Assembly: GCA_049970095.1 (NCBI GenBank)
Contig: JBMFNP010000001.1
Span: 18,912 to 82,911 of the forward strand
DNA from: Thermoplasmata archaeon
GTDB lineage: Archaea > Thermoplasmatota > Thermoplasmata > Lutacidiplasmatales > SKW197
Length of the DNA stretch: 64,000 bases
Reading direction: 5' to 3'
The notes below the pieces were generated by a model, which was not told the DNA's origin, did no database searches, and saw only the letters and a list, made by a program, of their open reading frames with translations. Both the position numbers and the translations under genes were made by a program. Shown one piece after another: positions 26,573 to 54,621 of the stretch (its first letter is position 1; every line of letters starts with the position of its first letter).

Positions 26573-27910
26573 ATGAAAGCAAAGGTCCTGGTTATTGGTG
26601 GCGGAGGCAGGGAACACGCAATTGCAAGGGCACTTGTGTCCTCCGGTGCAAGGATCTATACTGTGATGCGGAACAGGAACCCTGGGATTTCAAGGATTTC
26701 TGAAAAAATAAAAGTGACGAAGGAAACTGAAATTTCTGCAGTGTGTGAATTTGCAAAAGAAAATGGTGTGGATATTGCAGTTTGTGGTCCTGAAGAACCT
26801 CTCGTGAATGGAATTGCAGATGCACTGGAGAAATTGGGAATTCCGTGTGTAGGCCCCCACAGCCGGGCAGCTATGATTGAAGGCTCCAAGATGTTTGCAA
26901 GGGAACTAATGAAAAAACACGCTATACCTGGTGCAGTAAGATTCAGGGTTGTTGGGAACATAGAGGATGCAAGATGTGCATTTGATGAATACGAAAACAA
27001 TTTTGTGATCAAACCCATTGGACTTACTGGCGGTAAAGGCGTAAAGGTGATGGGCGAACATCTGAAGGATGTGGGTGAGGCAATGGCGTATGTAAAGGAG
27101 ATAATTGAAAAAAAGATAGGAAATAGCCAGAATGTGCTCATTGAGGAAAAACTTGAGGGAGAGGAGTTTACATTGCAGGCATTTGTCAATGAAAAGACGG
27201 TGTGTTTTTCTCCGCCAGTTCAGGATCACAAACGGCTCTATGAAGGTGATTGCGGACCAAACACAGGTGGTATGGGCTCATATTCATGCGAGAATTTCCT
27301 GCTGCCCTTTCTTACTGAGGAGGACCTAACAATGGCTAGGGAGATTATAATAAAAACAGTGGCTGCGCTTAAGAAAGAGGGAACACAATACCGCGGTTTT
27401 CTCTATGGACAGTTCATGGTGGCAGCAGATGGTGTGCATGTAATTGAGTTTAACTGCAGGCTAGGTGACCCCGAAGCAATGAATATCCTCACGCTGATAA
27501 CTTCAAATTTTACAGAACTCTGCTATAAGATTGCAAACGGAGAGCATTTGCCAGCACCAGAATTCAAGCGTCTGGCTACAGTCTGCAAGTATGTGGTACC
27601 AGAAGGTTATGGTATAAACCCAAGGAGGGGAGAGGAAATAAGAATTGAGGAAGAAGGAATTCTAAAATCTGGTTGTGTTCCATATTATGCAATGGTTGAT
27701 GAGATAGACGGTAAAATTTATACAACAACATCAAGAAGCGTGGGGATTGTGGGTGCTGCACCCACTTTAAGTGAGGCAGAACAAATTACTGAGAAGGCGC
27801 TGGCGTTTATAAGTGGGAAAGTGTATGTCAGGCATGATATCGGCAAACCAGAAGTGATTGAGAAAAGAATAAATCACATGAAAGCACTGCGCTCTATGCA
27901 CTCTTCGTAA
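26573..27910 (+). CDS. purD: phosphoribosylamine--glycine ligase (GAR synthetase)
   Basis: 445 aa. MKAKVLVIGGGGREHAIARAL… N-terminus and an ATP-grasp core typical of PurD. Confidence 0.9.
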   Translation: MKAKVLVIGGGGREHAIARALVSSGARIYTVMRNRNPGISRISEKIKVTKETEISAVCEFAKENGVDIAVCGPEEPLVNGIADALEKLGIPCVGPHSRAAMIEGSKMFARELMKKHAIPGAVRFRVVGNIEDARCAFDEYENNFVIKPIGLTGGKGVKVMGEHLKDVGEAMAYVKEIIEKKIGNSQNVLIEEKLEGEEFTLQAFVNEKTVCFSPPVQDHKRLYEGDCGPNTGGMGSYSCENFLLPFLTEEDLTMAREIIIKTVAALKKEGTQYRGFLYGQFMVAADGVHVIEFNCRLGDPEAMNILTLITSNFTELCYKIANGEHLPAPEFKRLATVCKYVVPEGYGINPRRGEEIRIEEEGILKSGCVPYYAMVDEIDGKIYTTTSRSVGIVGAAPTLSEAEQITEKALAFISGKVYVRHDIGKPEVIEKRINHMKALRSMHSS

Positions 27911-28373
27911 TTTCTACATATATTCCAACACCAGGATTATATTTGCATGTAAGTGTAAGTGTGTGTAAGCCCCTTCCGAGTTGGAAGGTGTCATTTTTAT
28001 CAGAACACATTCTTACATTCGGGTTTGTGATTATTATTTTTCCTTCCCCTGCGCTTGTAAGCTTATAAATGATGGAAGTAGTTGTGGTTGTTTGGGTGAT
28101 TGGACCCCCAATTTTTATGTACTCAATTTTTGTGAAAAAACCTTCATTAATATGGAGTGTGACTTCGTCAGAACTATTAAGAGTACCGAGATACACCTTT
28201 TTCACGCTGTTTGCAAGTATATTTAGTTCATTTCGGAGTTGTTGTTCTGTGTTGAATTTATCGTATGAAAAAAACGCTCCGAAAATTAAGGGTATGGAAA
28301 TACCTAAAACTACCGCAATTATTGTCAATTGTAAAGGGAGACCTTCTAAACCCTTATAATCCCAGGCAAACAT
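27894..28373 (-). CDS. small secreted/pilin-like protein with class-III-like signal peptide
   Basis: N-terminus …YKG|LEGLPLQLTIIAVVLGISIPLIF (basic residue, Gly, then a hydrophobic stretch). It shares the LEGLPLxLxII motif with its neighbour. Thr-rich. Confidence 0.5.
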   Translation of the reverse strand: MFAWDYKGLEGLPLQLTIIAVVLGISIPLIFGAFFSYDKFNTEQQLRNELNILANSVKKVYLGTLNSSDEVTLHINEGFFTKIEYIKIGGPITQTTTTTSIIYKLTSAGEGKIIITNPNVRMCSDKNDTFQLGRGLHTLTLTCKYNPGVGIYVEITKSA

Positions 28374-28409
28374 ACAAAAACCAAAATAAAAAAAGAGTTA
28401 AATAACTTT

Positions 28410-28862
28410 TTAGTCGTGCACTGTTATAAGGCCCTGAACAATCTTCATGGTGGTACCTGTGTACTGGGCAGTCACCTTTATTTCTCCGGTATGCACATTC
28501 ATTGGAAGTGTCGGGGTCACATCAAACGCTGCCTGTCCGTTCTTGTCTGTAAGTTTCTTTTGATCCACGCCACAGCCCTCAAGGTGTATTTCTACACCCT
28601 CCAGTACTTTTCCGTTCACATCATAGGCTGTTACTGTTACTGTAACGGTGTTTCCCACTGTCAGGTCTGTATTGTCAATAGAGATATGGTCCAGTTCTGG
28701 TTTCTTTACCATGTACATCCAGCCGACAAGAATGGCAATGCCGACCGCTGCAATGATCACCATGATTATTAGGTACAGCGGAAGTCCCTCAAGTGCGCCT
28801 TTCCTGTTTACTTTGTATCGCCTCATATTTTTTATCACCGTCCAATATATGGCATTTGTCAT
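28410..28862 (-). CDS. small pilin-like protein with class-III-like signal peptide and Ig/prealbumin-like beta domain
   Basis: N-terminus …NRKG|ALEGLPLYLIIMVIIAAVGIAILVG; C-terminal TVTVTVTAYDVNGKVLEGVEIHLEG beta-rich domain. Paralogue of 27894..28373. Confidence 0.5.
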   Translation of the reverse strand: MTNAIYWTVIKNMRRYKVNRKGALEGLPLYLIIMVIIAAVGIAILVGWMYMVKKPELDHISIDNTDLTVGNTVTVTVTAYDVNGKVLEGVEIHLEGCGVDQKKLTDKNGQAAFDVTPTLPMNVHTGEIKVTAQYTGTTMKIVQGLITVHD

Positions 28863-30990: not shown

Positions 30991-33900
30991 TTATTTTTTC
31001 TTCTCTTTTTTCTCTTCCTTTGTTTCTTTTTCTGGCTTTTTCTTCTTAATCTTTTCCTCTTCTTCCTCTTCACCGCCTTTCCGTCTCTTGCTGACTATGT
31101 AAATTACCAGTAGGGCGATTACTACAGCTGCAATACCTCCGCCGTACATTGCGTAGGTTTTCCATGCTGCCTCGTTTACTGTAATCTCTTTCTTCATCCC
31201 ATTGTTATCTGTATAGGTGTAGTACTCCTGAGCAGAATAAACACTTACATTGAGGCTGAAAGTTCCCGCAGTGTCAGGAGTCCATCTGAATTCCACAGTC
31301 ATTGTTTCATTATATTTAAGGGCGGTACCGTTGGGGTATGTGAATGTTGTGATGTTGCCCACTTCCCTTGCATCACCAGCACTTGAAATCAGCGTGAATG
31401 AAAGGTAATTGATGACTGCACTGGAGTTTTCACCACCAATGTTTTTGATTTCCACTTTGATTGTGCACTGAGTGCCCACTTCAAATTTATCTGGCAAAGT
31501 TACATTCGTGATTTCTAAGTCAGGCCTCGCGCTGGTGTTCAGCCGCACATTCAGAACCACAGTAGTATTTTTTGAATTACCAGCAATATCCCAAACCGTT
31601 AGGGTGATGTTCCAGTCGCCAGGTTCCAAGCCATTTTCAATGAAGTATGTGGTATTGTTTGATTCATTCTGGAGGAAAATTTGACCCTTCTTTTCAACCG
31701 TCCAGTTGTATTTTACAATAGTTCCTCCATGTGGATCATAGGACTCATTTGCTTTCAATGTGAGATTTGTCTTTTCAATCACACTCGTGGTTTCTGTGTT
31801 TTCTGCGTCATACACCTTGATTACTGGTTCAGGTGCCTCAGTGTCATTTACAATCACTGTAATCGTAGTGTTTGCCCAGTTACCTGCAATATCTGTCACA
31901 TTCAGTGTCACATTGTAAATCCAGCATCCCTTTACTGTCACTGTCCTACCAGATATATTGAAGGTGGTAATATTTACATAGTTTGCTCCTCCAACAAATG
32001 TATGGGAAATGTTGTAAAGGCGATTATCCATGGTCTCAGTAACCGTGGTGTTATCACCAAAGTCCCATGCCCAACTCCTTATTGTTCCGTTTCTGTCGCT
32101 TCCTGTTATGCTGTCTGAGGAGTAAGAGCCGTTGAACACTACCGGTGTGGTTACATTCGTAAATACATAGGTTGTGTTGTTGCCATTTGCATTAATCACT
32201 GCCAAAGGCACAACGCCATCCACATGTAGCGTCATGTTAGTTGTGTTTGTCTGCCCACCACTTCCGAGCACCGTGAGTTTTACTGTAATTCTCTCCCCTG
32301 CTTTTGTGTAGGTGTGGTTGATGGTAATATTCTCTGTTGAGGTTACTGTGCCATCACCGAAATCCCATGTGTATTTTGTAATATTGCCAACAGGAATTAT
32401 GGAATTCTGGGCACTGAAAGTCACATTTTCATTTGCCTTCACGATTACAGTATAGTTTTCGTATGTAGCATTTATGATATTGTAATCTCCCCATTCTTCC
32501 GCAGTTACATTGATCACTGGCTTTACCTCGGAGAACTTCTCAAACTCCATTCTTGCAGAAGCATAAGTGTAGCCACTCCCTGTTTTTGGATCTATTTCAA
32601 ATTTTTGCCAGTTGTTTATAGGCCAGAGGTCAACAAAACCTCTGTCAAATGTGTGATCCGTAAGTACATATCCAGGTGGCAAAGTAATCTGGTATTTGTA
32701 GTCGGAAAATACACTGTCGTAGAGAAAACCAAAGTTGCATTCGTAAGCATCACTTGTGTTTATTGTAGCATCCGAGTGGAATGTATAGGTGTAATTTATG
32801 TATATGGGTGCATCGGTGGTGACATCAATAGGATTGCTTGTGTTTGTTATACCTGTATCCTTCACACTCACACTGAAGCCAGATATATTTGTGAAACTAG
32901 TAGCATTTATTTCAAATCCGAACTGGTTAGGGACATATAGAGGTCCTGCCTTTGCTAGATACTCTTTGAATGCATCCATTTCTGTCTGGCTCACCTTGAA
33001 ATCTCTGTTTCCAAATGTGAAATCAATCTGGAGTCTAAGAATGCCTGTATCTGCCAGTTCCAGCCACGGAAACGAATAATGTGGGTAAATTTTTGCCTTT
33101 GTGGTTGCAGTAAAATTGTTCATATCAGTGAGGTTGAGTTCAGTCAATATTTCTCCTTTGGTTACCTGCTTTACTTTTGCATCCTTGATCTGGAGGATTC
33201 CGCTACTTACACTCACACTCTTGTTAATGTATGTGGTGTAACCCTCAGAAGCAACAATCAGCACAAAGTTACCTGGATATGCACCGATTTCAAAGTATGG
33301 TGTGTTTTCAAATTCTCTTGTGAAAGCTTTAAGTGTGTTCTGGTCAATGAGGATTACCGTAGTATGTTTTGCATCTGTGATTATGTTGCCTTCCATATCC
33401 CTAAGCACACCTTTAATGAAGGTTTTATACAGTGTAATGTTTATATCAATTCCACCGTTCTCTGGCAGTGTCACTGTCACATTGTAGGTTGGAGAGTACT
33501 GCGGATATTCTACGATGAGGTTATATGTTCCTGGATAGAATGAGATGTTAAATCCCTGCACTTTCGGGTCGGTAACATTCACATCATTGGGCAGCGGGAT
33601 CCCATAACTTCTCGTTTCCTCACTGTACTTGTGTGCAATGTCCACAATTTTAACTGTAGCGTTGGTAGTGAAATCCCCGCCAGTTGCAAGCCGAATTGTG
33701 CCATTAACATACGCGTTCACATCCTTTTTCTCAGTTGTGAGTTCCTTCTCTACATTTTGTGTGAATACACCAAAGGGCTCAGTTTCTGTGTAAAGGAAAA
33801 CTTCATTAATTTTCTTTTGCGAATCCATCACCAGTTTATAGTAACCTGGGGATGCTGAGAAGATAAAGAAACCACCAGTCCTCGTGGTCGTGGTGCTTGT

Positions 33901-34089
33901 CACCTCTCCTTTTGCAAAAGAGTAGAGCTTGACTGTAAGTCCTTCTGGTGCAAAATCCCCATCAGTTGTGTACACGGTGCCAGATATTGTCACCGTAGGG
34001 GATGTTCCATTCGCCTTCAGCGTAGAGCACACTAGCAGTCCAAGCACCAATATTGTACCTATTATTTTCAGACACTGTTGTTGTTTCAT
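30991..34089 (-). CDS. large surface protein with signal peptide, PKD domains and C-terminal TM anchor plus Glu/Lys-rich tail
   Basis: 1032 aa. N-terminal signal; PKD signatures WDFGDGTVTS… and WAWDFGDNTTVT…; many N-glycosylation sequons. C-terminus YAMYGGGIAAVVIALLVIYIVSKRRKGGEEEEEEKIKKKK…. Confidence 0.8.
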   Translation of the reverse strand: MKQQQCLKIIGTILVLGLLVCSTLKANGTSPTVTISGTVYTTDGDFAPEGLTVKLYSFAKGEVTSTTTTRTGGFFIFSASPGYYKLVMDSQKKINEVFLYTETEPFGVFTQNVEKELTTEKKDVNAYVNGTIRLATGGDFTTNATVKIVDIAHKYSEETRSYGIPLPNDVNVTDPKVQGFNISFYPGTYNLIVEYPQYSPTYNVTVTLPENGGIDINITLYKTFIKGVLRDMEGNIITDAKHTTVILIDQNTLKAFTREFENTPYFEIGAYPGNFVLIVASEGYTTYINKSVSVSSGILQIKDAKVKQVTKGEILTELNLTDMNNFTATTKAKIYPHYSFPWLELADTGILRLQIDFTFGNRDFKVSQTEMDAFKEYLAKAGPLYVPNQFGFEINATSFTNISGFSVSVKDTGITNTSNPIDVTTDAPIYINYTYTFHSDATINTSDAYECNFGFLYDSVFSDYKYQITLPPGYVLTDHTFDRGFVDLWPINNWQKFEIDPKTGSGYTYASARMEFEKFSEVKPVINVTAEEWGDYNIINATYENYTVIVKANENVTFSAQNSIIPVGNITKYTWDFGDGTVTSTENITINHTYTKAGERITVKLTVLGSGGQTNTTNMTLHVDGVVPLAVINANGNNTTYVFTNVTTPVVFNGSYSSDSITGSDRNGTIRSWAWDFGDNTTVTETMDNRLYNISHTFVGGANYVNITTFNISGRTVTVKGCWIYNVTLNVTDIAGNWANTTITVIVNDTEAPEPVIKVYDAENTETTSVIEKTNLTLKANESYDPHGGTIVKYNWTVEKKGQIFLQNESNNTTYFIENGLEPGDWNITLTVWDIAGNSKNTTVVLNVRLNTSARPDLEITNVTLPDKFEVGTQCTIKVEIKNIGGENSSAVINYLSFTLISSAGDAREVGNITTFTYPNGTALKYNETMTVEFRWTPDTAGTFSLNVSVYSAQEYYTYTDNNGMKKEITVNEAAWKTYAMYGGGIAAVVIALLVIYIVSKRRKGGEEEEEEKIKKKKPEKETKEEKKEKKK

Positions 34090-34281
34090 TTTCCATCCTC
34101 CAATTTGGCTATGCCTGATTTTTTCAGTTTAACACCTACTCATTAATATAATTTTGCCTTCACCGGGTTTCATTGAGTGTTTCTCAAAACTGCCCTCTCA
34201 CCCAGGTACCATCTTTTTCTGCCGTCTTAGAAGTTTGAGGTCGTGGAAAAATCTATATCTCTTTGTAAACTTCGCCATTCA

Positions 34282-36135
34282 ATGCAAAAATCACATGAGC
34301 GCCGCACACAAATCTTCTGGTGCAGCAGGTGCAATGTTCCCATTCTCAGCGAAAAGTGTGGAATTTGTGGCAGCAATGGAAACAAGATTATGCTCCACCA
34401 TGGGAGAGAAATCAGGCCCGGGTTTGAGTACACGCTGAATAAAATCAACCAGATACTTGAAAAAAAGTATGGAGTGAAGGAGGCTTTGAATGGAAAACTT
34501 GTGCTTCTTCACAAAGTAGCAGGTATTGATAGGACAGAAGAAATAATTGTTGATGGAAAGATTTTTGGTACATTTTCCTACATACCTGAAGAGAGGGAAT
34601 TTCAGATTTTTCTGAGAAGTTACGGCGCTGCCTATCTGCGGGGGAAGGGAGCACATAAAAATATAGTAACTGTAAATGAGAAAGCACTGGAGAGACATCT
34701 GAAAAACACATGGATTTTTGCAGAGGAACTACTGGATATTGCAGAGATTTCTCCACATCAGGACATTATTCTCTCCATAGGTAAATACACAGGTGTAGGA
34801 ATCCCTAAATTCCATAGTAGGGAAAAAATTCCAAAAAAGTGCATAAAGGTAAGGGATATTGGGGTCTGTGAATTCCAGGAGAACAACCCTGATTTTCACA
34901 CGATAGTAAAGGCAAATGCAGATTATATTGATATTCTTGAAAAAACAGCAATATCGGAAATAAAAAGGACGCTGATGCAACATAAAAATATGAAAATTGC
35001 TGTATCTTTCAGCGGAGGTAAAGATAGTGCAGTAGCATTTCATCTTCTCAGCAAAGTGACAAGCCAGTTTGATGTTATTTTCGTGGACACAGGTCTTGAA
35101 TTTCCTGAGACGGTAGAATATGTGAAAAAAATGGCTAAGGGAAAGCCTCTCTTCATTCTGAAACCCGAACACTCATTCTGGGATCTTGTGGATTCCATGG
35201 GACCACCAGCAAAGGATTACAGATGGTGCTGCAAGGTATGCAAGTTAGCACCAGTTGCCAGCCATGTAGGTAAATATGGAGAAATTCTAACTGTTGAGGG
35301 TAGAAGAAGGGCTGAGTCCTTTGCAAGAGAGAAAATAAATTTGATTGAAAAAAATCCGTTTGTGCCAGGGCAAATACTCGTGAACCCCATAAGAAACTGG
35401 TGTGCATTTGAGATCTGGCTATACATTCTAAAAGAACATATTCCAGTGAATCCGCTTTACTTCCATGATTTTGAAAGAATTGGGTGCTATCTCTGCCCCT
35501 CTGCACATGCCTGTGAATTTGATGAGGTTGCCTCTCTCCATCCAGAAATGTATGAGCGCTGGCAGAATTATCTAAAATTTTGGGCTGAAAAAAATGGAAT
35601 GGACGAAGATTACTGGAGAAAAGGTTTATGGCGATGGAAAACTCCACCGAGGAAAATCAGGAGAGAGAAAAGCTGGGAGGAGAAAAGAAATATTCACATC
35701 AAGGAAAGCATCACATGCAATGGAGAATATTTGATTGATGGGAACTTCAATACTGGGTTGAGCCAGATAGAAATCGGAAATGCACTGGGAATCCTGGGAG
35801 AAATGAGATATCTTGAGAGCACTGGCACAATTATGATAAAGCTCAGAAAATCTAGAATTCTATTTTTTGCAAACTCTGATTTCTCTGTAGTCTCAACTAA
35901 CCGTGAGGAGGGAAGAAAACTTCTTGTAAAGATTATCCAGCAATTGCTGAGGGGGATGTTCTGCACATCCTGCATGATCTGCAAAAGGGCATGCCCAGTA
36001 GGGTGCATAGATATAAGGGATGGAAAACCAGAGTACAACCTTCAGAAATGCAAAAAATGTGGGCATTGTATTGAGGCGTGTGTTGTGGCGAGATACTGGG
36101 ACAAGCGGATTGCACTTGTTTTTTCCCACACATAA
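34282..36135 (+). CDS. PAPS-reductase-family PP-loop ATPase with N-terminal Zn-ribbon + PUA-like domain and C-terminal ferredoxin domain (paralogue 2)
   Basis: WCSRCNVPILSEKCGICGS Zn ribbon, AVSFSGGKDS PP-loop, RWCCKVCK…GCYLCP, and C-terminal CTSCMICKRACP…CKKCGHCIEAC. About 50% identical to 12045..13952 in the catalytic core. Start chosen at the Met aligned with paralogue 1 (track ORF begins at 34243). Confidence 0.8.
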   Translation: MQKSHERRTQIFWCSRCNVPILSEKCGICGSNGNKIMLHHGREIRPGFEYTLNKINQILEKKYGVKEALNGKLVLLHKVAGIDRTEEIIVDGKIFGTFSYIPEEREFQIFLRSYGAAYLRGKGAHKNIVTVNEKALERHLKNTWIFAEELLDIAEISPHQDIILSIGKYTGVGIPKFHSREKIPKKCIKVRDIGVCEFQENNPDFHTIVKANADYIDILEKTAISEIKRTLMQHKNMKIAVSFSGGKDSAVAFHLLSKVTSQFDVIFVDTGLEFPETVEYVKKMAKGKPLFILKPEHSFWDLVDSMGPPAKDYRWCCKVCKLAPVASHVGKYGEILTVEGRRRAESFAREKINLIEKNPFVPGQILVNPIRNWCAFEIWLYILKEHIPVNPLYFHDFERIGCYLCPSAHACEFDEVASLHPEMYERWQNYLKFWAEKNGMDEDYWRKGLWRWKTPPRKIRREKSWEEKRNIHIKESITCNGEYLIDGNFNTGLSQIEIGNALGILGEMRYLESTGTIMIKLRKSRILFFANSDFSVVSTNREEGRKLLVKIIQQLLRGMFCTSCMICKRACPVGCIDIRDGKPEYNLQKCKKCGHCIEACVVARYWDKRIALVFSHT

Positions 36136-46304: not shown

Positions 46305-48449
46305 TCAAAATGTTTTTCTATCTGTGGCTATCGGTGAGAAGATGATGCCGGGTGGAGAAGAATGAGAATTGTAATGCTGGAGGAATTCATCCCACTGGGT
46401 TTGGTTTGTGAACACCCCTGATGAAGAATATTCCCCAAGCCAGCTTGCATCCCCATCAGGGAAGAATATACTTATGCCGTGGCAGAAGCTCACGGTCGGT
46501 GTTGCCCTGTAAACCATCACTGTAGAAGAAACTTGGCTCATCACATTTGCTGCTGCACTCTTCAAACTGCTGGAATTTGCATACTTCTGGATGTTCTCTG
46601 CAAACTGGTAGAGGTCAACAGTGTTGTAGCCAGTTGAGTCAAGGATACTCCCGCATGCCTTTCTTGCTTTGGAAATATTTTCATAATCTTTCTGTAGTTC
46701 GCTTGTTAGTGCACTTGCGAAGCTGTTAACGGCACTCACAAGCCCTGGCACCGCTGCAGCATTGTATGCGGCAATTGCCTGCGTTGTGTAACAGGCATCA
46801 TCTACAGGTGTAGCTACATTTATGATAGTAGTTGCCAGGGCACTTCCTGAGATGCTTGGGTTGGATACAATTGCTCCTACAATTCTATTCTGGGGGAACG
46901 TGGATGTCCAGCCAATAGTTTCACTTGCAACTATATAATCCACATATGGATACACCTGCGCGAGCACTTCAATTGCACCCATCAAACAGTCATCAAAATA
47001 GAGCACATCCACATTATGCCCGATGAGTTGCTTCAATGCCTCAACCCCATTAGCAATTTCTGTAAGGTCAAGGTTGTCCCCTCCGTTCGTATCATCCCAG
47101 CAACAACCAAGCCATGACCCACCATGGTCCTCCGGGTTCACCAGATAGTGGTCTGCCTGGAATCTCTGGGCACCCCAGATAAGGAAGTAAATCCAGGTAT
47201 ATCTATCTCCCATGTTAACTTCGCCCAAACTCTGTACTGCATTCTGTGGTGTGGGAGAAAGCCCTTTGGTTACAAAGTACCTGTATGCCCCACTGTTCGC
47301 ATGGTCTATCTGGACTGCGATGCTCACATCCCTTGTTGAGCCTATACTTGCAATATCATTGAAATCCTCAACCATGTAATCATCAAGGTTGTTGTCACCA
47401 TCGTAGTACATCAGCACAGTCCATTTCGCTTTCACCACTGTAAAACTCATGGTGACGCCGTTGTTACTCTCCCCAGTGCCGATATAAGTGCCCGTAGCTT
47501 TGTTCGCTTCACTCACAGCATTCGTTGTATCCACTACTACACGCACTGTATGGGTTCCTGGTGTAGATATAAAGAGAGAGGAAGAAGAGAAGGAGAAAGA
47601 GGCACCCACTGAAAGGCTAGAGGTTGTTTTTGTTCCATAGAGGGTCCCATCTACATAGATTTTGGTGTAAAATGTGGTTGATGCACTGTTATCTCCAGCG
47701 TTCTTTATTTTCGTGTAAACCTTGAACGGCTGTCCAGATGTTATGGTTGTAGTTGTGCTCCCATATGTGTCCACAATCCAGGTACTTTCCACCACAAGGT
47801 CTGGTGCTTTGAACCATACCAGGGTGGATTTTATGTTGTCGTTTTCATTGCTTTCTGGTACACTGTTTGTGGAATCGGCAATTACCATCACATTATGATA
47901 TCCAGGTCCAAGTCTGTTTGTGGTCTTATACACCGTTGTGGAAGTTTCTGGTTCAAGAACATCCACCCAGACAGTTCCAAGAGAGATATTCGTATTCCCG
48001 TATTTGCTCTTGAATTCCACTGAGAAACCTGATGCGGCAACTTCTCCGTAGTTAGTAAGGGTGGCAGTAATTGTAATTGTCTGGTAGGCAGTAGGTGTTG
48101 AGGGCGAGACGGAAATACTTTTTACTACAATATTTGCCGCTCCCCCTGCGGCGTTGATTTCTGGGGGTGTATATTCAGATACCACCTCAGGTAGATTCTC
48201 TACACTCATTTCAAAAGCAGATTCGCCAATCAATTCTGGCGATCCGATGGTCCCTTCCGAGAATTCTTTCAATAGAACTGGATTTTGTTTCACTTCCTTT
48301 TTACTGACATCTGTCCTTATTCCCTTCTCCGAGTTATTCATTCCTGACACTGAAACCGTGAAAACACCAGCTACTAGTACTACCAAGAGCATAGCACATA
48401 TCATTTTTTTAGATTTTTTAGAGTTGAACATTTTATCACCTCCTTTCAC
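46305..48449 (-). CDS. secreted CARDB-domain protein with C-terminal clostripain-like (peptidase C11) cysteine-protease domain
   Basis: Signal peptide, then CARDB-like repeats (…YQTITITATLTNYGEVAASGFSVEFKS…). C11 signatures WTVLMYYDGDNNLDDYM, EDHGGSWLG (catalytic His) and LYFDDCLMGAIEVLAQ (catalytic Cys). Confidence 0.75.
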   Translation of the reverse strand: MKGGDKMFNSKKSKKMICAMLLVVLVAGVFTVSVSGMNNSEKGIRTDVSKKEVKQNPVLLKEFSEGTIGSPELIGESAFEMSVENLPEVVSEYTPPEINAAGGAANIVVKSISVSPSTPTAYQTITITATLTNYGEVAASGFSVEFKSKYGNTNISLGTVWVDVLEPETSTTVYKTTNRLGPGYHNVMVIADSTNSVPESNENDNIKSTLVWFKAPDLVVESTWIVDTYGSTTTTITSGQPFKVYTKIKNAGDNSASTTFYTKIYVDGTLYGTKTTSSLSVGASFSFSSSSLFISTPGTHTVRVVVDTTNAVSEANKATGTYIGTGESNNGVTMSFTVVKAKWTVLMYYDGDNNLDDYMVEDFNDIASIGSTRDVSIAVQIDHANSGAYRYFVTKGLSPTPQNAVQSLGEVNMGDRYTWIYFLIWGAQRFQADHYLVNPEDHGGSWLGCCWDDTNGGDNLDLTEIANGVEALKQLIGHNVDVLYFDDCLMGAIEVLAQVYPYVDYIVASETIGWTSTFPQNRIVGAIVSNPSISGSALATTIINVATPVDDACYTTQAIAAYNAAAVPGLVSAVNSFASALTSELQKDYENISKARKACGSILDSTGYNTVDLYQFAENIQKYANSSSLKSAAANVMSQVSSTVMVYRATPTVSFCHGISIFFPDGDASWLGEYSSSGVFTNQTQWDEFLQHYNSHSSPPGIIFSPIATDRKTF

Positions 48450-48542
48450 TATGTAATATGTGGGTGTGAGTATATATATTTGTTGGGGTAACTACCACAA
48501 CTTTACCATGTAGGTAAAATTGCTATTGTGAAGTGCAAGAAT

Positions 48543-48572
48543 ACCACCACACTACCACCACACTACCACCAT
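48543..48572. repeat. tandem 11-nt repeat (ACCACCACACT x ~2.7) in divergent promoter between C11-peptidase gene and pilin-like operon
   Basis: ataccaccacactaccaccacactaccaccat. A related actaccacaac lies ~50 nt upstream. The TATA-like tttatatata follows. Confidence 0.7.
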
Positions 48573-48606
48573 ATGTTTATATATACGCTTGCAGATATAG
48601 ATTAGT

Positions 48607-48614
48607 GAGGAGGT
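48607..48614 (+). promoter_or_regulatory. Shine-Dalgarno GAGGAGGT 3 nt upstream of ATG 48618
   Basis: gaggaggtaccATG. Confidence 0.7.
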
Positions 48615-48617
48615 ACC

Positions 48618-49121
48618 ATGCACAGAAGTTTCCATAAACCGAAAAGTTTTTTATTCTCAAAAAAAGGTGCGGCGGATTTTTATGAAGAGATACCTACGGT
48701 TATCATCGCCATCACCTCAATCACGCTTTTCTTTCTCGCTGCAACAGTGGCATATGCCAATTACCAGGCAACTTACACGCACATAGACTACCGTGCAAAA
48801 TGCAATAAATTCCTGCGGGACATAAGAGGCTGGGAAAACCTAACATATGGGAACATGGAAGGGCTCTTTGATGCCAGAAAAGTGGCTACATACACACTGG
48901 ATAATCTCACCCGTGCGTTCCAGCCGGATTTTGATTTTGAGGTAAATATCACAGACACAAGCCCCTATTACTGGAAGTATAATCGTATTGTTAAAACAGG
49001 GACTATTCCTGACACCAGTTCACTCACCTACGGTGTGTATGTAATTTCATGTGGAATTGCAATATTTGTGAATGAAGAGGAAATACATGAAGGTAAATTA
49101 ACAGTAACCATCTGGAGGTGA
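48618..49121 (+). CDS. pilin-like / class-III-signal-peptide protein 1 of operon
   Basis: N-terminus …SKKG|AADFYEEIPTVIIAITSITLFFLAATVAY (basic residues, Gly, hydrophobic stretch). 167 aa, strong SD. Confidence 0.55.
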   Translation: MHRSFHKPKSFLFSKKGAADFYEEIPTVIIAITSITLFFLAATVAYANYQATYTHIDYRAKCNKFLRDIRGWENLTYGNMEGLFDARKVATYTLDNLTRAFQPDFDFEVNITDTSPYYWKYNRIVKTGTIPDTSSLTYGVYVISCGIAIFVNEEEIHEGKLTVTIWR

Positions 49122-49122
49122 G
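49115..49122 (+). promoter_or_regulatory. Shine-Dalgarno GGAGGTGA 3 nt upstream of TTG start 49126
   Basis: ctggaggtgagaaTTGaacagaaag. Confidence 0.6.
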
Positions 49123-49125
49123 AAT

Positions 49126-49644
49126 TTGAACAGAAAGAAGAGGGGACAGAGTTCACTTTTTGACATGGTTTTTTTCATTCCACTCTTAATTCTTGCGGGC
49201 TTAATACTCAATTTTTCCACAGTTAAAATTTATGACAACACCGTAAAAGACGACGAAAAAATCGTTGTGGTGTCCGAAACCCTGGAGAACATTCTCAGGG
49301 TAACAATAGACAAAGCCACATACACTGCGAGCAGTGCAACCATTCTTCTTGAGGACCAGAGTGTTCTGGAACTGATTTTTGAGGATTTGTATTTGAGAGA
49401 TAAAGGTGTGGCGGATGTGAACAATATTAAGCAGGGCATTGAGGCGAAAATAAATGCCGCAATAAGAGGTGTGGTATCTCCGGAATACCACTATAATCTT
49501 TCTGCCACTTACAAAAATGTAAATATCTGGATGTCAGATTATGGTCCCAGTCCACAGATCAAATACACCTCAACGGAATATTTCAAGATGCCATATGAAC
49601 CCACAAATGTGGTGAAGGTAACCCTTGCAATTTGGCTCCGTTAA
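49126..49644 (+). CDS. pilin-like / class-III-signal-peptide protein 2 of operon (TTG start)
   Basis: N-terminus MNRKKRG|QSSLFDMVFFIPLLILAGLILNF fits the archaeal prepilin-peptidase substrate pattern (K/R-G, then a small residue, then a hydrophobic stretch). Confidence 0.55.
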   Translation: MNRKKRGQSSLFDMVFFIPLLILAGLILNFSTVKIYDNTVKDDEKIVVVSETLENILRVTIDKATYTASSATILLEDQSVLELIFEDLYLRDKGVADVNNIKQGIEAKINAAIRGVVSPEYHYNLSATYKNVNIWMSDYGPSPQIKYTSTEYFKMPYEPTNVVKVTLAIWLR

Positions 49645-49652
49645 GGAGGTGA
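49645..49652 (+). promoter_or_regulatory. Shine-Dalgarno GGAGGTGA 5 nt upstream of ATG 49658
   Basis: ttaaggaggtgagaaaaATGaataaagg. Confidence 0.65.
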
Positions 49653-49657
49653 GAAAA

Positions 49658-52600
49658 ATGAATAAAGGAAAATTGAGAAAAATAAGAATGAATGAGAGGG
49701 GCAGAGTTCCATTTGCTCTGGTTGCACTCGTAATCCTCTCGCTTGCAACAGTAAGCACATTGTATATCGCAGAAATTGATAAGGAACGCTCAGAAAAGGT
49801 AATAGAACACTATCAGGCAGATACGAATAATATTGCGAGGGCATGTGGTGAGGAACTGGAAACAGTGGCATACTATATTCTGATGCAAGTGATTGCAGAT
49901 ATGAATAATCAGCACAATCCACCACTTGACCAGATAAACAAAAGGTTACAGGATAATTTCGCTGCGTATGTGAACACATATTATAAGCCGAAGCGGATGG
50001 ATACATACTGGATAACTGTGAAAGAACACCATGTGTATTTTATCATGGATATTTTCAATGTGAATGATTCTATAGATATCTCAAACCAGAGCAAGCCCGA
50101 GTTTTTGCTGTTTGCATCACCCAGCACAAATGAAATAGACATGACAACAAACACAATGTTAAGCCAGACAAAGAAGGTTGCATATCCGAGGGTAGCGGGA
50201 AATGTAACACTGGAATTAAAAGATGTGCGTGCAAATTACATAGTGACCAAAACAATGGAGTTTGACAAGAATCTGTATTCTGCATTGCCGATGATGCGCA
50301 GTGCCTATGACTTTCTCTCAAGAACCTCTTTTGGTGATTTTGGGGAGTTAGGAAGATTGACAAAATTCATACTTACAACGATTGCCCAGTATAGAGTACT
50401 GCTTGGTTATGCTGGTGGCGGCTATGGCATCTACACCTATCCAAAGGAACAGATACTCACGCAGGATGATGTAAAAATTGCAGTGAATGTGGCAATGCTT
50501 CTGCTCTCTGCAAGATATTTTAGAGATTATGATAAAGATGCTGCTACCCAGCTCGGTGTAAACGCATTGTTTGAGAACTGGGTGAAAAATGGAACGGTGG
50601 ATGCTGCGGACATCTGGGCGTTGTATAAGAATATCATGGACACAAAAATAGACACAGGCAAGATTTTAGCCCAGAGCATCTATTCCTTTGCAGATAGATT
50701 TGCGTATGAACTCCTGACAATATTCTGGGATCCGGACACAGATTATTTTGCAGACCCAATCTTGAAGGAGCCATTCAGGGACTGGAATGAGGCAAAGGGT
50801 AAGGGAGAGACATGGGCAAAGGCAATGCTTAAAATCTGGCTTGGAAAATTCCGTTCATGGCTGGGAATTGCAGAAAGCATTGGGGATTACGAGAGTTCAG
50901 CATATATTAACGAAATGTCTGGTTTCTATGTGGCATACTGTCCTGTGCACGATGAGATTGTTGCAGGAACCTATACAGTGTTCCCTGGTGGTACATGGTA
51001 TGTGCATGCGTACGGAGTGCCAGACACAAGAGATCTTATTCTTGGAGAATCTGGAAATCCAAATCTTGATGCTCAACCCTATAAAGTTGAGACCTGGGAT
51101 GATTTCAGTGGCATTGGAAAGAGGTTATATAATTACTATGTGGTGAAGGAATCATTGATAAAGAAACATGCACACAGTAGCACACCCTACTATGACACGC
51201 TCTATGATATTCTTGAGGCTCTGAATAGAACCATGAAAAAACTTTCACCGAGTGTAAATGACAAACCGAACAAAGGATTTATGGATTATATGGCATACGA
51301 TATCTCAAAACGGCACAATCTTGAAGATACTGGTCTACAGGTAGATCCGAGTGATAAAACCACAATTCTTCTCAACCACTCAGACTATCTGATAAACACA
51401 GGTGCAATAAAGCAGGGAATCAATGATATGGCATCCTATGCAAGTGCGTTCAATGTGAGAGATAACTGGTGGAGATATGGCGCATACCATAGAGAGCAAA
51501 CAAATCCCAAAACTGGCTATCTATATGCAATCACGCAGGAAACTGTGGACCTCTGGTACGAAATGGTAGTAAACCTCTTCATGAGTGCAATAAAGGACTT
51601 TGACCCGTTTCCCTCAAGGGGTTTCCCGCCCTCAGTACAGCGGAGCGACTGGTATAATCCAAATGGTGCCTTTAAATTCAAAAATGACTTACTGAAAGAC
51701 GCTTTCATGCGTGTGTGCATAAAGTATGCAGATCCAAGGCGTGCGTCCTGGCATGATGAGGCATGGGATGGAACCCCACCCTGCTGTTCAATTCCAAAGA
51801 TGATTATTCTTGCAGAGGTGAATGCAGAATGGACAGATCTCAATATCTGGAACCATATAATGGCTGACATACGAGAAGCAGTTGAGGATACTGTTGGAAG
51901 AAACGGGCTCTTGATGGACATTACCAGGGATATGAAAGAAAATCTTGACGAAGTTACAGACATGCATGCCTATCAAGAAAATTATTACCGATTCATAAGG
52001 GAGTACATTGGCACCAAATTCATTGGAACTTCCGGATCAAATACCTGCCTGGTTGTAGCCCTTACGAAGCAGGGTGGCTGGGTTGAGAACATAATGCAGA
52101 CCACACTTAATCACATAAGAGACAATGCGGATTTGAGCAACATTGTATTATTTGAGCAAACAAACTATAGAATGGTATATGATTTCTGGGAGAACAATCT
52201 CACCACAGCATCCCAGAATGAAAGTATCCTCCATGAGGAATTGAGGGTGAAGCAGTATCCCACAGTGCTCTCACCCGGCTCTGGAATTAATGTCCAGATC
52301 ACCATACCTACAAAGGGAGTGCATTATGTAGATGCACAGGATGTGGAGCATAACATGGGTGATGCGCCCTTCACCACCCAGTGGGATGTAACAATAACAG
52401 GCAGTGTGCGAATTACAGTGAATGCTCTCAGATACTCACTGCTAAAAGGTCCAACGCATATCCAGACAATTTACAACAATACCGTTAAAATAGACATGAA
52501 TTTTCCAGTGGTGGTTTATTCTGGATGGAATTTAGAATCAGGATGGCGCAGATATGATATTGACTATCCAATGACACGCGGATACTTTGGAATTCCACCA

Positions 52601-53872
52601 AAAGACGACTCCTTTGACCCCTGGTTTATAAGCAAGCCCTTTGTTGAGTTGATAGAAGGAATGAAGGATGCAGCGGATTGGGTAATGGACAGAGACATGC
52701 GCATGAACCTCCTGCTGATGAATTATCTGGACAAAGGTGTGGAGCAGGAAGTGCATCTTTCAAAGATAATATCAGATGTGCTGAAGACAAACTGCATTCT
52801 ATTGCGTGATGCAGCCAAATCCAACTATCTCTCCGAGTTAAGCCAGAGATTCAATGCTGTGTTCTCTGCAGGAAGGGTGAGCACATACAACATTAAATTT
52901 TATGGATTTGATGCCACCTTCAAAAGTGGCTCAAAAGTTCTGGATTACAAGAGTAAATACTTTACCACAGAGATTGACTATGCAAATCTGAAAAACCAAC
53001 TCAAGTATGAGGCAAATGATTTTGATTTCAACGACGCAAGTGAACCACTGAGTGGAACATTCGGGAAGTTCAGTTTGACTGCACACAACACATACTTCGG
53101 AGAGACATTCACCACAAACATTGAGGAACCGAGCAGGACGCCCATAAGATGCGAATGGGCAGCAACAGTTAACGGAATATATGTGCCTTACCTGCATAAG
53201 ACCATCACTCTGAATATTGGAGCGATTTTGATGGGAAGTTCCACAATGCCTTCAAGTGTGTCCAGCGCCTTCAGCAATAACGCGGTGTATTTGAAGGCAA
53301 ATATGGAAGACCTGAGTGTATTCCTCAAATACTCACTGGGAGATGTGTATTCCCACTGTGTGAATGACCTTACAAGCAGTCAGGGCTTTGGCTTCTTCTT
53401 TGAATATACAGATGGTGGAAAAACCTACAGACAGGAATATGTGATTGCACAGTTTCCAGGTGCGAGCTGGAGCGAGGGACATATAAGAACATATCTGATA
53501 TCAGTTATTAACCACATACGCCAGATTGTATATAACATAGGAAATCCAGAAATTCCCACAGCACTTTATTCCTCCTATCCCACAGATATAGGAAATGCGA
53601 TGAAAGTGCAGAATCGCTGGAAGAATTATGATTATCTGGGAGATGCTGTAACATCCGTTACAATCAATGCTCATGCATCACTGCTTGGAAAGGTGGGTGC
53701 AGGAATAGACGCAGGTATCGTGCGAATTGAGTTTGAGGTTGTGGGCAAAGACAACTGGATTGTAGAAGGGAGAACAATGAATGGCGGCAGTTCTCCGCCG
53801 CCTCCACCACCACCTCCACCACCACCGCCACCCGGTGGAAGGCTAGATGGAATTGATGTATCTAACTGGTAG
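49658..53872 (+). CDS. giant (~1400 aa) protein with pilin-like N-terminus, large domain of unknown fold, 13-residue poly-Pro linker and the first strand of a GH25 muramidase domain; terminated by TAG inside the GH25 GIDVSxWQG motif
   Basis: SD-supported start MNKGKLRKIRMNERG|RVPFALVALVILSLATVSTLYIAEI. It ends …NGGSSPPPPPPPPPPPPPGGRLDGIDVSNW-TAG. The GH25 homology continues in the same frame immediately after the TAG. Confidence 0.8.
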   Translation: MNKGKLRKIRMNERGRVPFALVALVILSLATVSTLYIAEIDKERSEKVIEHYQADTNNIARACGEELETVAYYILMQVIADMNNQHNPPLDQINKRLQDNFAAYVNTYYKPKRMDTYWITVKEHHVYFIMDIFNVNDSIDISNQSKPEFLLFASPSTNEIDMTTNTMLSQTKKVAYPRVAGNVTLELKDVRANYIVTKTMEFDKNLYSALPMMRSAYDFLSRTSFGDFGELGRLTKFILTTIAQYRVLLGYAGGGYGIYTYPKEQILTQDDVKIAVNVAMLLLSARYFRDYDKDAATQLGVNALFENWVKNGTVDAADIWALYKNIMDTKIDTGKILAQSIYSFADRFAYELLTIFWDPDTDYFADPILKEPFRDWNEAKGKGETWAKAMLKIWLGKFRSWLGIAESIGDYESSAYINEMSGFYVAYCPVHDEIVAGTYTVFPGGTWYVHAYGVPDTRDLILGESGNPNLDAQPYKVETWDDFSGIGKRLYNYYVVKESLIKKHAHSSTPYYDTLYDILEALNRTMKKLSPSVNDKPNKGFMDYMAYDISKRHNLEDTGLQVDPSDKTTILLNHSDYLINTGAIKQGINDMASYASAFNVRDNWWRYGAYHREQTNPKTGYLYAITQETVDLWYEMVVNLFMSAIKDFDPFPSRGFPPSVQRSDWYNPNGAFKFKNDLLKDAFMRVCIKYADPRRASWHDEAWDGTPPCCSIPKMIILAEVNAEWTDLNIWNHIMADIREAVEDTVGRNGLLMDITRDMKENLDEVTDMHAYQENYYRFIREYIGTKFIGTSGSNTCLVVALTKQGGWVENIMQTTLNHIRDNADLSNIVLFEQTNYRMVYDFWENNLTTASQNESILHEELRVKQYPTVLSPGSGINVQITIPTKGVHYVDAQDVEHNMGDAPFTTQWDVTITGSVRITVNALRYSLLKGPTHIQTIYNNTVKIDMNFPVVVYSGWNLESGWRRYDIDYPMTRGYFGIPPKDDSFDPWFISKPFVELIEGMKDAADWVMDRDMRMNLLLMNYLDKGVEQEVHLSKIISDVLKTNCILLRDAAKSNYLSELSQRFNAVFSAGRVSTYNIKFYGFDATFKSGSKVLDYKSKYFTTEIDYANLKNQLKYEANDFDFNDASEPLSGTFGKFSLTAHNTYFGETFTTNIEEPSRTPIRCEWAATVNGIYVPYLHKTITLNIGAILMGSSTMPSSVSSAFSNNAVYLKANMEDLSVFLKYSLGDVYSHCVNDLTSSQGFGFFFEYTDGGKTYRQEYVIAQFPGASWSEGHIRTYLISVINHIRQIVYNIGNPEIPTALYSSYPTDIGNAMKVQNRWKNYDYLGDAVTSVTINAHASLLGKVGAGIDAGIVRIEFEVVGKDNWIVEGRTMNGGSSPPPPPPPPPPPPPGGRLDGIDVSNW

Positions 53873-53974
53873 GGCACAATCAACTGGGTTTCTGTCAGGG
53901 CTGCAGGATATTACTTTGCGTTTGCAAAAGCCACGGAAGGTGTAAGTTATGTAGACCCAACTTTCAGTACAAAT

Positions 53975-54457
53975 ATGAGAAATGCCAAGGCAGCAGGAAT
54001 TTACATAGGAGCATATCATTATGCCCACCCGGACAGGAATTCAGCAATTGCAGAAGCAGACCACTTCGTGAGTGTGATAATGCCATATATCTCTACTGGC
54101 TATATGGTACCTGCGCTTGACCTGGAGGAGGGTTATTCTATCGGGAAGCCTGCGCTTTCCCAGTGGGTAAATACTTTTATGAACAGAGTGAAGGCAAGGA
54201 CAGGAGTGACACCTGTAATTTATACAAGCGCAAATTATGCAAGGAACTATCTTGATTCCTCAGTCACTGTATGGCCACTGTGGATTGCGCACTGGACATA
54301 CAATCCTGGGAGTTCCCCAAGTACGGGTGTCTGGAGTACCTGGTATTTCTGGCAGTATAGTGATAAAGGCCATGTGCCAGGCATCTCAGGCAATGTTGAT
54401 CTGGATGTTTTTAATGGAGATCTATCTGCGCTGGAAGCGAGTTTTGTAATCCATTGA
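53975..54457 (+). CDS. GH25-family lysozyme/muramidase domain, as called from an internal Met; the homology actually starts at 53846 in frame with the upstream giant ORF across TAG 53870-53872
   Basis: GRLDGIDVSNW*GTINWVSVRAAGYYFAFAKATEGVSYVDPTFSTNMRNAKAAGIYIGAYHYAHP…ALDLEEG…WIAHW…WYFWQYSDKGHVPGISGNVDLDVFNG aligns residue-for-residue with the Streptomyces GH25 (Cellosyl) pattern GIDVSHWQGSINW…AYIKATEG…GAYHFA…LDIE…FWQYS…GDVDRNKFNG. The TAG replaces the conserved Gln. Confidence 0.8.
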   Translation: MRNAKAAGIYIGAYHYAHPDRNSAIAEADHFVSVIMPYISTGYMVPALDLEEGYSIGKPALSQWVNTFMNRVKARTGVTPVIYTSANYARNYLDSSVTVWPLWIAHWTYNPGSSPSTGVWSTWYFWQYSDKGHVPGISGNVDLDVFNGDLSALEASFVIH

Positions 54458-54621
54458 TTTTCTCTAATTTTTTTGTTGCTTCTAACAAAGATTTTAAAAA
54501 TGTGCTGGTACCTGTATCAAGCACTGCGTTTGAGGGCAAGCATCTACCTAATGAGAGAATTGAGAAGGTATATCAAAAACTTTATTACACCCTTCTGATA
54601 TACCGCTCGCTGGTGAAATCT

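Follow-up and report, generated by a model that had tools for sequence, protein, structure and literature searches.

How archaea fight bacteria or feed on them is barely understood, and the archaeal peptidoglycan hydrolases that we know of so far are soluble, secreted enzymes. The closest precedent for the locus described here is B5ID12 of Aciduliprofundum boonei, a GH25 muramidase of bacterial origin that is encoded by a multidomain gene in a Thermoplasmatota archaeon and whose antibacterial action has been shown (Metcalf et al. 2014; PMC4241558). Thermoplasmatota were found to be rich in homologues of peptidoglycan hydrolases by a survey that required a peptidoglycan-binding domain, and the archaeal enzymes Woldo and Danwoldo cut bacterial peptidoglycan (PMC12352652). 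The bindosome of Sulfolobales and "functionalised" type IV filament machineries join a prepilin-like N-terminus to diverse domains, with the assembly machinery encoded at a distance, and large functional proteins with class III signals have been reported to be widespread (bioRxiv 10.64898/2026.04.22.720090). Here we analysed a stretch of 64,000 nucleotides from a Thermoplasmata archaeon (assembly GCA_049970095.1, contig JBMFNP010000001.1, positions 18,912 to 82,911 of the forward strand; hereafter the window), which contains a cassette of three genes. The first two encode small proteins of 167 and 172 residues (p167 and p172), and the third encodes a protein of about 1,400 residues whose frame runs on into a polyproline tract and a GH25 muramidase domain. 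We consider it fairly probable that these three genes specify a cell-surface display complex of Thermoplasmata with accessory cargo, where the surface location, the complex, the processing and the antibacterial use are what we infer from sequence; the order of the genes and how it is conserved, the size of the family, its modularity, the stop codon, the selection acting on GH25 and the predicted architecture are shown directly.

The three genes form a conserved unit. The original prediction described them as consecutive on the forward strand, each with a GGAGGT Shine-Dalgarno sequence, and the coordinates of the open reading frames (ORFs) and the sequence confirm this, with just 4 nt between the first and second genes and 13 nt between the second and third. 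Homologues of p167, p172 and the large protein occur as a cassette in nine loci of Thermoplasmata metagenome-assembled genomes (MAGs), in three gene orders and at about 30% identity, a recurrence that is more than chance. The claim that the three genes belong together was thus borne out. Homologues of p167 were found at L006, L007, L008, L011, L012, L013, L019 and L026 (related loci are numbered with the prefix L), and homologues of p172 were found in the same loci. Both small genes lie directly upstream of the large gene at the first six of these loci, behind an additional 1507-aa LTD protein at L019/L020, and downstream of the large gene but in the reverse orientation to it at L026. Several loci also contain an Ig/LTD-type protein of ~1200-1500 aa and two more small proteins with N-terminal helices, which gave weak matches to DUF7311 and DUF7266.

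The large protein belongs to a big, structurally novel and modular family that is restricted to Thermoplasmata, and this is among the most solid of our new points, along with the stop codon, the three genes as a conserved unit and the repeated gain of GH25. Even when given a profile, a word-indexed homologue search for the large protein returned only five proteins; for the small proteins it returned three. The family came into view when 1.84 billion representative proteins were searched exhaustively with a profile, which gave 239 representative clusters at E <= 0.001, 90 of them at E <= 1e-30. All named members are from Thermoplasmata, and the lengths of those listed full-length range from ~1250 to 2145 aa. 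The similarity resides mainly in the first ~370-430 residues and in a central "YSGW.L.GV.Y" block. The N-terminus is stereotyped: basic residues, G/A, any two residues, P/S, F, A/S, and then ~20 hydrophobic residues. G181, R246, G250, D271, A275, R289, D292, D315 and D346 are near-invariant in over 100 members of the family whose identity is <20%, which hints at a predicted binding or catalytic site, hitherto unrecognised, between residues ~180 and 350 of the scaffold core. In the marine Thermoplasmatota loci L001, L002, L003, L014 and L015, the large-protein homologue directly follows an Ig-like (Big_7) protein of ~1510 aa, and NurA and a DUF87/HerA-type ATPase come before the latter; no p167 or p172 homologues were detected in these five loci.

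The body of the large protein had been described as lacking any recognisable domain, and a Pfam search of the first ~1375 aa agreed: no domain scored above threshold, and the sole match was a weak one of the N-terminus to DUF7286, reaching 14.6 bits over profile positions 1-52 against a gathering score of 27. Two relatives exceed this score (30.7 and 28.6 bits), yet only over positions 2-63 of a profile of 1000. DUF7286 is an uncharacterised archaeal family, as are DUF7285 and DUF7287, and the starts of its profile and of the large-protein family are alike over ~60 residues, but only 60 of the 1000 profile positions align. A literature search by the DUF numbers of this group found no papers, and tblastn of the DUF7286-like N-domain against plasmids gave no match. 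The structure of residues 1-1200 was predicted confidently by AlphaFold2 (AF2) from an alignment of 58 sequences, with a predicted local distance difference test score (pLDDT) of 87.9 and a predicted template-modelling score (pTM) of 0.81. In this model a single continuous helix of 64 residues (19-82), the first third of which is the hydrophobic segment, is followed by a second helix (91-108), by two long strands of 24 residues each (117-140, 166-189), by a third, shorter strand (195-205) and then by big helical and beta modules. A Foldseek search of the model against the Protein Data Bank (PDB) gave no match below E 0.33.

Different members of the family bear different accessory domains, either internally or at the C-terminus. 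Pfam searches of 29 diverse members identified LTD in seven, PKD in three, Big_5 in three, TSP3 together with TGase_elicitor in three, and GH25, Metallophos and Peptidase_C39_2 in one each. The Metallophos domain forms the C-terminus of P0033, TSP3 and TGase_elicitor that of P0077 (likewise P0078 and P0112, by direct sequence similarity), while the C39-like peptidase is an internal insertion in P0039.

In the lineage of the window, the cargo is a muramidase. The 13 consecutive prolines noted in the original prediction are confirmed at the end of the scaffold, and the GH25 domain beyond them matches PF01183 with an E-value of 6.8e-48 (163.8 bits against a cut-off of 27). Its best match in the PDB is the Streptomyces cellosyl 1JFX (5.6e-41), and the catalytic Asp (GIDVS) and the DxE motif (LDLEE) are kept. 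Compared with its homologue at L006, the GH25 domain is 92% identical in amino acids and 79% in nucleotides, with a ratio of nonsynonymous to synonymous differences per site (pN/pS) of 0.06; the scaffold is 85% identical with a pN/pS of 0.13, and synonymous sites are saturated (pS 0.75-0.79). The GH25 domain must therefore have been under strong selection nearly throughout the separation of the two lineages, and by this measure the polyproline-GH25 fusion is real and subject to strong purifying selection in the lineage. A second case comes from P0014, a family member 31% identical to the window protein, in which a GH25 domain is inserted internally (residues 824-1011) with Gly/Asn-rich linker flanking it. 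The two GH25 domains are 59.5% identical, and phage endolysins reach <=41%. Because the domain sits at different sites in the two proteins, a muramidase has been placed on the scaffold at least twice. Such repeated capture argues that presenting a muramidase on the scaffold is useful and selected, and that the large protein is a general carrier of extracellular functions. The polyproline tract itself varies between close strains, resembling a slippage-prone spacer: it has 13 residues in the window and at L005, 18 at L006, and 16, including one Leu, at L021.

The claim that the large ORF carries the muramidase holds only in part: the domain and the spacer are present, but an in-frame TAG, which the original prediction overlooked, ends the ORF close to the start of the muramidase. 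The frame stops seven codons into GH25 (GIDVSNW-stop-GTINW), and no ATG, GTG or TTG occurs in the GH25 frame between the TAG and 53975, where an ATG is the earliest downstream start codon. At L005 and L006, which are 83-86% identical, this codon is CAG (Gln). L006 encodes an uninterrupted 1606-aa fusion with a complete GH25, "intact" here meaning frame continuity across a run of N (~123 masked codons) in the 10418-10954 region of the record; the frame of L005 is intact up to the contig end, which falls inside GH25. L021, a contig of the independently assembled MAG GCA_049699375.1, has the same TAG, and its polyproline tract is 9 nt longer with a Pro-to-Leu change. We rejected a random sequencing error because this independent assembly carries the same TAG. 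We also rejected an old pseudogene, given the pN/pS of the domain and the lack of further lesions in its remaining 194 codons, as well as general recoding of TAG, which ends 6 of the 41 tabulated ORFs (the large ORF included) and forms only one credible TAG junction in the 64 kb. Metagenomes were scanned twice for the TAG/CAG site, and neither scan turned up a contig. As judged from these strains, the TAG is real and recent. L004, which is 83% identical to the window protein, ends where the polyproline would start and has no GH25, so that within one narrow clade the muramidase is intact, truncated or absent.

One might suppose that the TAG is decoded, through low-level read-through or as pyrrolysine, and that the full-length fusion of scaffold and GH25 is still made. 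The TAG is common to two independently assembled strains with differing polyproline tracts, and the three substitutions that separate them after it are all synonymous third-position changes (AGT/AGC, GCA/GCG, GGC/GGA), with no second lesion in the domain; pyrrolysine is moreover used by some Thermoplasmata (Methanomassiliicoccales). Three such substitutions are, however, insufficient as proof of selection, and five other well-supported genes among the 41 in the window end with TAG. The window has no second junction of this kind and no pyl or methyltransferase genes, Rfam gave no match to a PYLIS-like RNA, and the predicted fold downstream of the TAG is ordinary (z = -0.79). The hallmarks of pyrrolysine recoding, namely rare TAG, several in-frame TAGs and PYLIS or pyl, were thus not found in the window, and we regard decoding of this TAG as distinctly improbable.

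We then consider how the three proteins might be held at the surface. The original prediction noted class-III-like N-termini and read the architecture of the cassette as an archaeal type-IV-pilus-like or other surface filament. The N-terminus of p167 is KKG-AADFYEEIP followed by a hydrophobic helix of ~22 residues, and in its family FYE[ED][IV]P is invariant directly before the helix. That of p172 is KRG-QSSLFD, again followed by a hydrophobic helix, with the aligned family showing the invariant motif G-Q-S-S-L-x-D, and that of the large protein is ERG-RVPFALVALVIL (ERG-RVPFALV and a transmembrane segment). Checked by eye against published processing sites (Table 1 of PMC4371748), all three agree with a loose class III rule, i.e. 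a short basic N-terminus, a [KRDE][GA] motif and a hydrophobic H-domain of ~20 residues within the first ~40 residues: KKG-AA, KRG-QS and ERG-RV, each with ~20 hydrophobic residues. The motifs that run up to the helix and into its beginning ([GA]-x-x-[PS]-F-A, G-Q-S-S-L-x-D and F-Y-E-[ED]-x-P) are conserved in all three families despite <20-30% identity. The basic-Gly-hydrophobic pattern is therefore secure in the translations of all three products, and it is conserved in their homologues. Position +1 of p172 is Gln in different loci (RG-QSSLFD, KG-QSS, RA-QSAVVD, TG-QIALFD), with an acidic residue at +6. Substrates of EppA in Methanococcus have KGQ[VIL] or RAQI, thus Gln at +1, with an acidic residue at +5 (PMC4371748). 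By its sequence, the +1 Gln of p172 would be typical of an EppA substrate.

The curated models told less. In searches with the three proteins and with their homologues, neither Pfam (E <= 0.1) nor NCBIfam (E <= 1) returned a pilin or class III N-terminal model; neither the TadE/Tad N-terminal Pfam models nor the DUF2341 model matched the window proteins or their relatives. Relatives of p167 gave weak full-length matches to DUF7287 (E 0.006). Profiles of p167 and p172 yielded only noise against PDB sequences, and no paralogy between the two was detectable by hhalign. The original prediction had also pointed to prepilin peptidase homologues as a check, and none was found, nor an assembly ATPase or a platform protein, in the 64-kb window or in the flanks of the ~20 related loci that were scanned for machinery genes. 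On the other hand, a 64-residue N-terminal helix is the feature expected of a pilin-like subunit. The pilus-like reading therefore survives in its N-termini and its helix, but no match to a pilin model or a pilin fold and no nearby machinery were found for it. We put prepilin-type processing of the three proteins at roughly even odds, as far as their sequences tell; a long pilus with the large protein at its tip is plausible but less likely than such processing alone, and "filament tip" and "contact weapon" are roles that we infer.

Two stricter views of the anchoring bracket this position. In the first, p167 and p172 would be minor pilins and the large protein the tip of a true type IV pilus, built by a PilB/PilC-type machine encoded elsewhere, that brings the lysozyme to bacteria. 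Such a pilus would fit the basic-G/A-hydrophobic N-termini conserved in the three families, the EppA-like features of p172 and the long helix of the large protein; archaeal pilin genes are often distant from assembly genes (PMC12448462; PMC4371748), and the window contains more genes with prepilin-like N-termini at 27894-28862. These encode proteins of 150 and 159 aa, the latter of which has a homologue (E 3.6e-18) beside the cassette at L007, L008, L012 and L013, where it is one of the additional small proteins with N-terminal helices mentioned above; its gene (27894-28373) adjoins that of the 150-aa Ig-like protein and lies 20 kb from the cassette. Nevertheless, no pilin N-terminal model of Pfam or NCBIfam recognises the proteins, the machinery was missing from all flanks scanned, the cassette has no candidate major pilin, and distant family members stand alone. 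We therefore hold a true pilus to be unlikely. In the second view, the proteins are ordinary type II signal-anchored envelope proteins with no prepilin-type processing; the large protein would be part of the unordered glycoprotein coat of Thermoplasmata that lack an S-layer, and the small proteins would be unrelated membrane partners. Solo family members among housekeeping genes, the atypical R/K at +1 in the large protein and the missing pilin fold match speak for it, as does the unordered glycoprotein layer that reportedly replaces the S-layer in Thermoplasmatales (PMC12448462). However, motifs next to the helix that are so strongly conserved at very low identity would be unusual for plain anchors, the large protein has only 9 N-x-S/T sequons in 1404 residues, and p167 and p172 are tightly linked in nine loci. 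We consider plain anchoring somewhat unlikely, if less so than a true pilus.

Several observations weigh against the display complex that we favour. Residue +1 of the large protein is Arg/Lys, and in p167 the Gly is separated from the helix by a stretch with three acidic residues; both features are atypical of class III signals. The AF2 model of p172 (pLDDT 61 overall and ~80 for its C-terminal alpha/beta domain, with only three sequences aligned) had no fold match in the PDB and no pilin-like match. Many distant members of the large-protein family lack p167/p172 neighbours, and the L004 protein, the closest relative that lacks GH25, indicates that the cargo is dispensable. The cargo is interrupted in the genome of the window, where the function of the muramidase may currently be absent. 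Finally, the location and processing of the three proteins are predicted from their translations.

With these points in mind, the display complex may work as follows. The protein of 1,400 residues would be held in the membrane by its conserved N-terminal helix or, alternatively, this helix would, after prepilin-type cleavage, join those at the N-termini of p167 and p172 in a short bundle. The elongated scaffold would then project outward, and different lineages would attach different accessory domains to it. In the clade of the window, the attached domain is a GH25 muramidase, which a rigid polyproline spacer would hold out and which would cut bacterial peptidoglycan near the archaeal surface. 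This may serve to kill or weaken neighbours, to harvest cell-wall material, or both, purposes that have been discussed for the soluble A. boonei GH25 (PMC4241558) and for further peptidoglycan hydrolases of archaea (PMC12352652). The target is taken to be bacterial because murein is, to our knowledge, absent from archaea. In this particular genome, the change from CAG to TAG severs the enzyme after 7 residues and leaves a scaffold with a polyproline stub, barring occasional read-through.

The neighbouring genes bear on the purpose of the muramidase. The original prediction described a CARDB + Peptidase_C11 gene and an MMPL gene beside the cassette, and Pfam confirmed both. A homologue of the C11 peptidase (E 7e-33) is encoded at L019 (14494-16251, - strand), the locus of P0014 and thus of the other GH25-bearing cassette; no C11 gene was found at the other loci examined, the flanks of L006 included. 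The link of these neighbours to the system therefore holds to this extent only: C11 recurs at the P0014 locus, and MMPL is not a conserved neighbour. On the strength of two loci, the C11 peptidase is suggestive of a possible accessory. MMPL and ZnuABC, which we take to be unrelated housekeeping neighbours, were rejected as components, since neither recurs beside the cassette at L006 or elsewhere; at L006, different genes flank the cassette on both sides. A nutritional role, in which GH25 releases muropeptides from dead bacterial walls beside the cell and acts alongside the secreted C11 peptidase, would agree with the C11 gene flanking both GH25-bearing cassette types and with the phosphoesterase and peptidase cargos, which resemble scavenging enzymes, and feeding was also put forward as an alternative in the case of A. 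boonei (PMC4241558). Yet the C11 gene is missing from the L006 flanks, genes for the uptake of amino sugars or muropeptides are not linked to the cassette, and killing and feeding are inseparable by sequence. We see feeding as a possibility, although not a probable one.

The coordinates of the cassette and of related features are collected in the following table. The region between the divergent C11 peptidase gene and p167 contains a direct repeat of 2.5 copies of ACCACCACACT (ACCACCACACT ACCACCACACT ACCACCAT) at 48545-48575, which may be a putative regulator binding site. The T-rich tract behind the GH25 frame is likely, by analogy of sequence, to act as an archaeal transcription terminator for the operon. 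A scan of the region for promoters and terminators of bacterial type was uninformative, since the models are bacterial and the host is archaeal.

Coordinates of the three-gene cassette, its signals and related features in the window (position 1 is the first letter of the window)
Feature	Position	Strand	Evidence
150-aa ("NRKG-ALEGLPLYLII", Ig-like Big_1/Big_3_5 C-terminus) and 159-aa ("DYKG-LEGLPLQLTII") genes with prepilin-like N-termini	27894-28862	-	
Secreted CARDB + Peptidase_C11 gene, divergent from the cassette	46305-48449	-	Pfam
Divergent intergenic (promoter) region between C11 peptidase gene and cassette, with AT-rich TATA-like stretches	48450-48617	.	sequence
GGAGGT Shine-Dalgarno of gene 1, 3 nt before ATG	48609-48614	+	sequence
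p167 ORF, 167 aa, ATG start	48618-49121	+	ORF list
GGAGGT of gene 2, 6 nt before TTG, overlapping the p167 stop codon	49114-49119	+	sequence
p172 ORF, 172 aa, TTG start	49126-49644	+	ORF list
GGAGGT of gene 3, 7 nt before ATG	49645-49650	+	sequence
Large ORF, 1404 aa from best-start ATG	49658-53872	+	ORF list
Scaffold part of the large protein, residues 1-1379	49658-53794	+	AF2 model and family search
Polyproline spacer, 13 Pro codons	53795-53833	+	sequence
First seven GH25 codons (GIDVSNW), first catalytic Asp included, joined to the scaffold	53849-53869	+	sequence and 1JFX alignment
In-frame TAG in place of the conserved Gln codon of the GH25 "WQG" motif	53870-53872	+	sequence, relatives
Remainder of GH25, 194 codons (53873-54454) and TGA (54455-54457), in the scaffold frame	53873-54457	+	Pfam, PDB
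T-rich tract TTTTCTCTAATTTTTTTGTTG, candidate operon terminator	54458-54482	+	sequence

The G+C content of the window is ~41%, and it is filled with archaeal housekeeping genes, including those for Pus10, pyruvoyl arginine decarboxylase, aspartyl- and tryptophanyl-tRNA synthetases, GAR synthetase and DUF7121. This gene content and the nearest database relatives of the large protein, which are labelled "Thermoplasmata archaeon", identify the window as part of the chromosome of an uncultivated member of the Thermoplasmata. Two more giant predicted surface proteins are encoded on the reverse strand, one of 1402 aa that combines three CARDB domains with several zinc ribbons at its C-terminus (17736-21944) and one of 1032 aa with PKD and CARDB (30991-34089). 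The window also contains paralogous genes, at 12045-13952 and 34243-36135 on the forward strand, for PAPS-reductase-like proteins of ~630 aa with a C-terminal 4Fe-4S dicluster, the first of which also has PUA.

If the display complex is as we propose, a tethered enzyme on a widespread and uncharacterised scaffold, with swappable modules and two dedicated partners, would make its action depend on proximity at the wall-less surface of Thermoplasmata. Close strains in which the cargo is intact, truncated or absent are natural controls and provide a concrete gene set for testing, and the large proteins are a candidate substrate class for archaeal prepilin peptidases. A bolder extension would be a surface organelle of Thermoplasmata, in which a prepilin-like stalk of three subunits presents interchangeable effectors (muramidase, phosphoesterase, C39-like peptidase, transglutaminase-like) to neighbours. 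Such an organelle, hitherto unrecognised, would be the archaeal equivalent of the polymorphic, contact-dependent effector systems of bacteria, and closely related strains would gain, move, truncate and lose its cargo, but we think that it is unlikely.

How the cassette compares with described systems can now be stated. In bacteria, TadE, TadF and TadG are two small proteins and one large protein with N-terminal hydrophobic helices, encoded in a row; the cassette is like them in gene arrangement only. The PilY1-like DUF2341 proteins of Methanococcus are encoded in type IV pilus loci of a similar layout (PMC4858521), whereas the cassette has no adjacent machinery genes. The lysozyme gene of A. 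boonei is 1725 bp long and specifies ~575 aa, which was the ground for rejecting its identity with the cassette and its membership of the scaffold family; the window type has a scaffold of 1,400-1,600 aa with a conserved N-terminal anchor and a spacer of polyproline, and two small genes accompany it. Woldo and Danwoldo, with which the window GH25 would share its proposed substrate, are soluble, Sec/Tat-secreted and equipped with peptidoglycan-binding domains, while the window GH25 has no binding domain and is tethered to a giant anchored scaffold. The bindosome resembles the cassette in its prepilin-like N-termini, diverse domains and distant machinery, yet its examples are substrate-binding proteins beside ABC transporters, and the cassette has a novel scaffold of 1,400 aa with hydrolase and adhesion domains and a cleavage that is only predicted. 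Altogether, the cassette is a variant of two archaeal themes, the peptidoglycan hydrolase and the functionalised surface protein of class III type, rather than a proven new machine.

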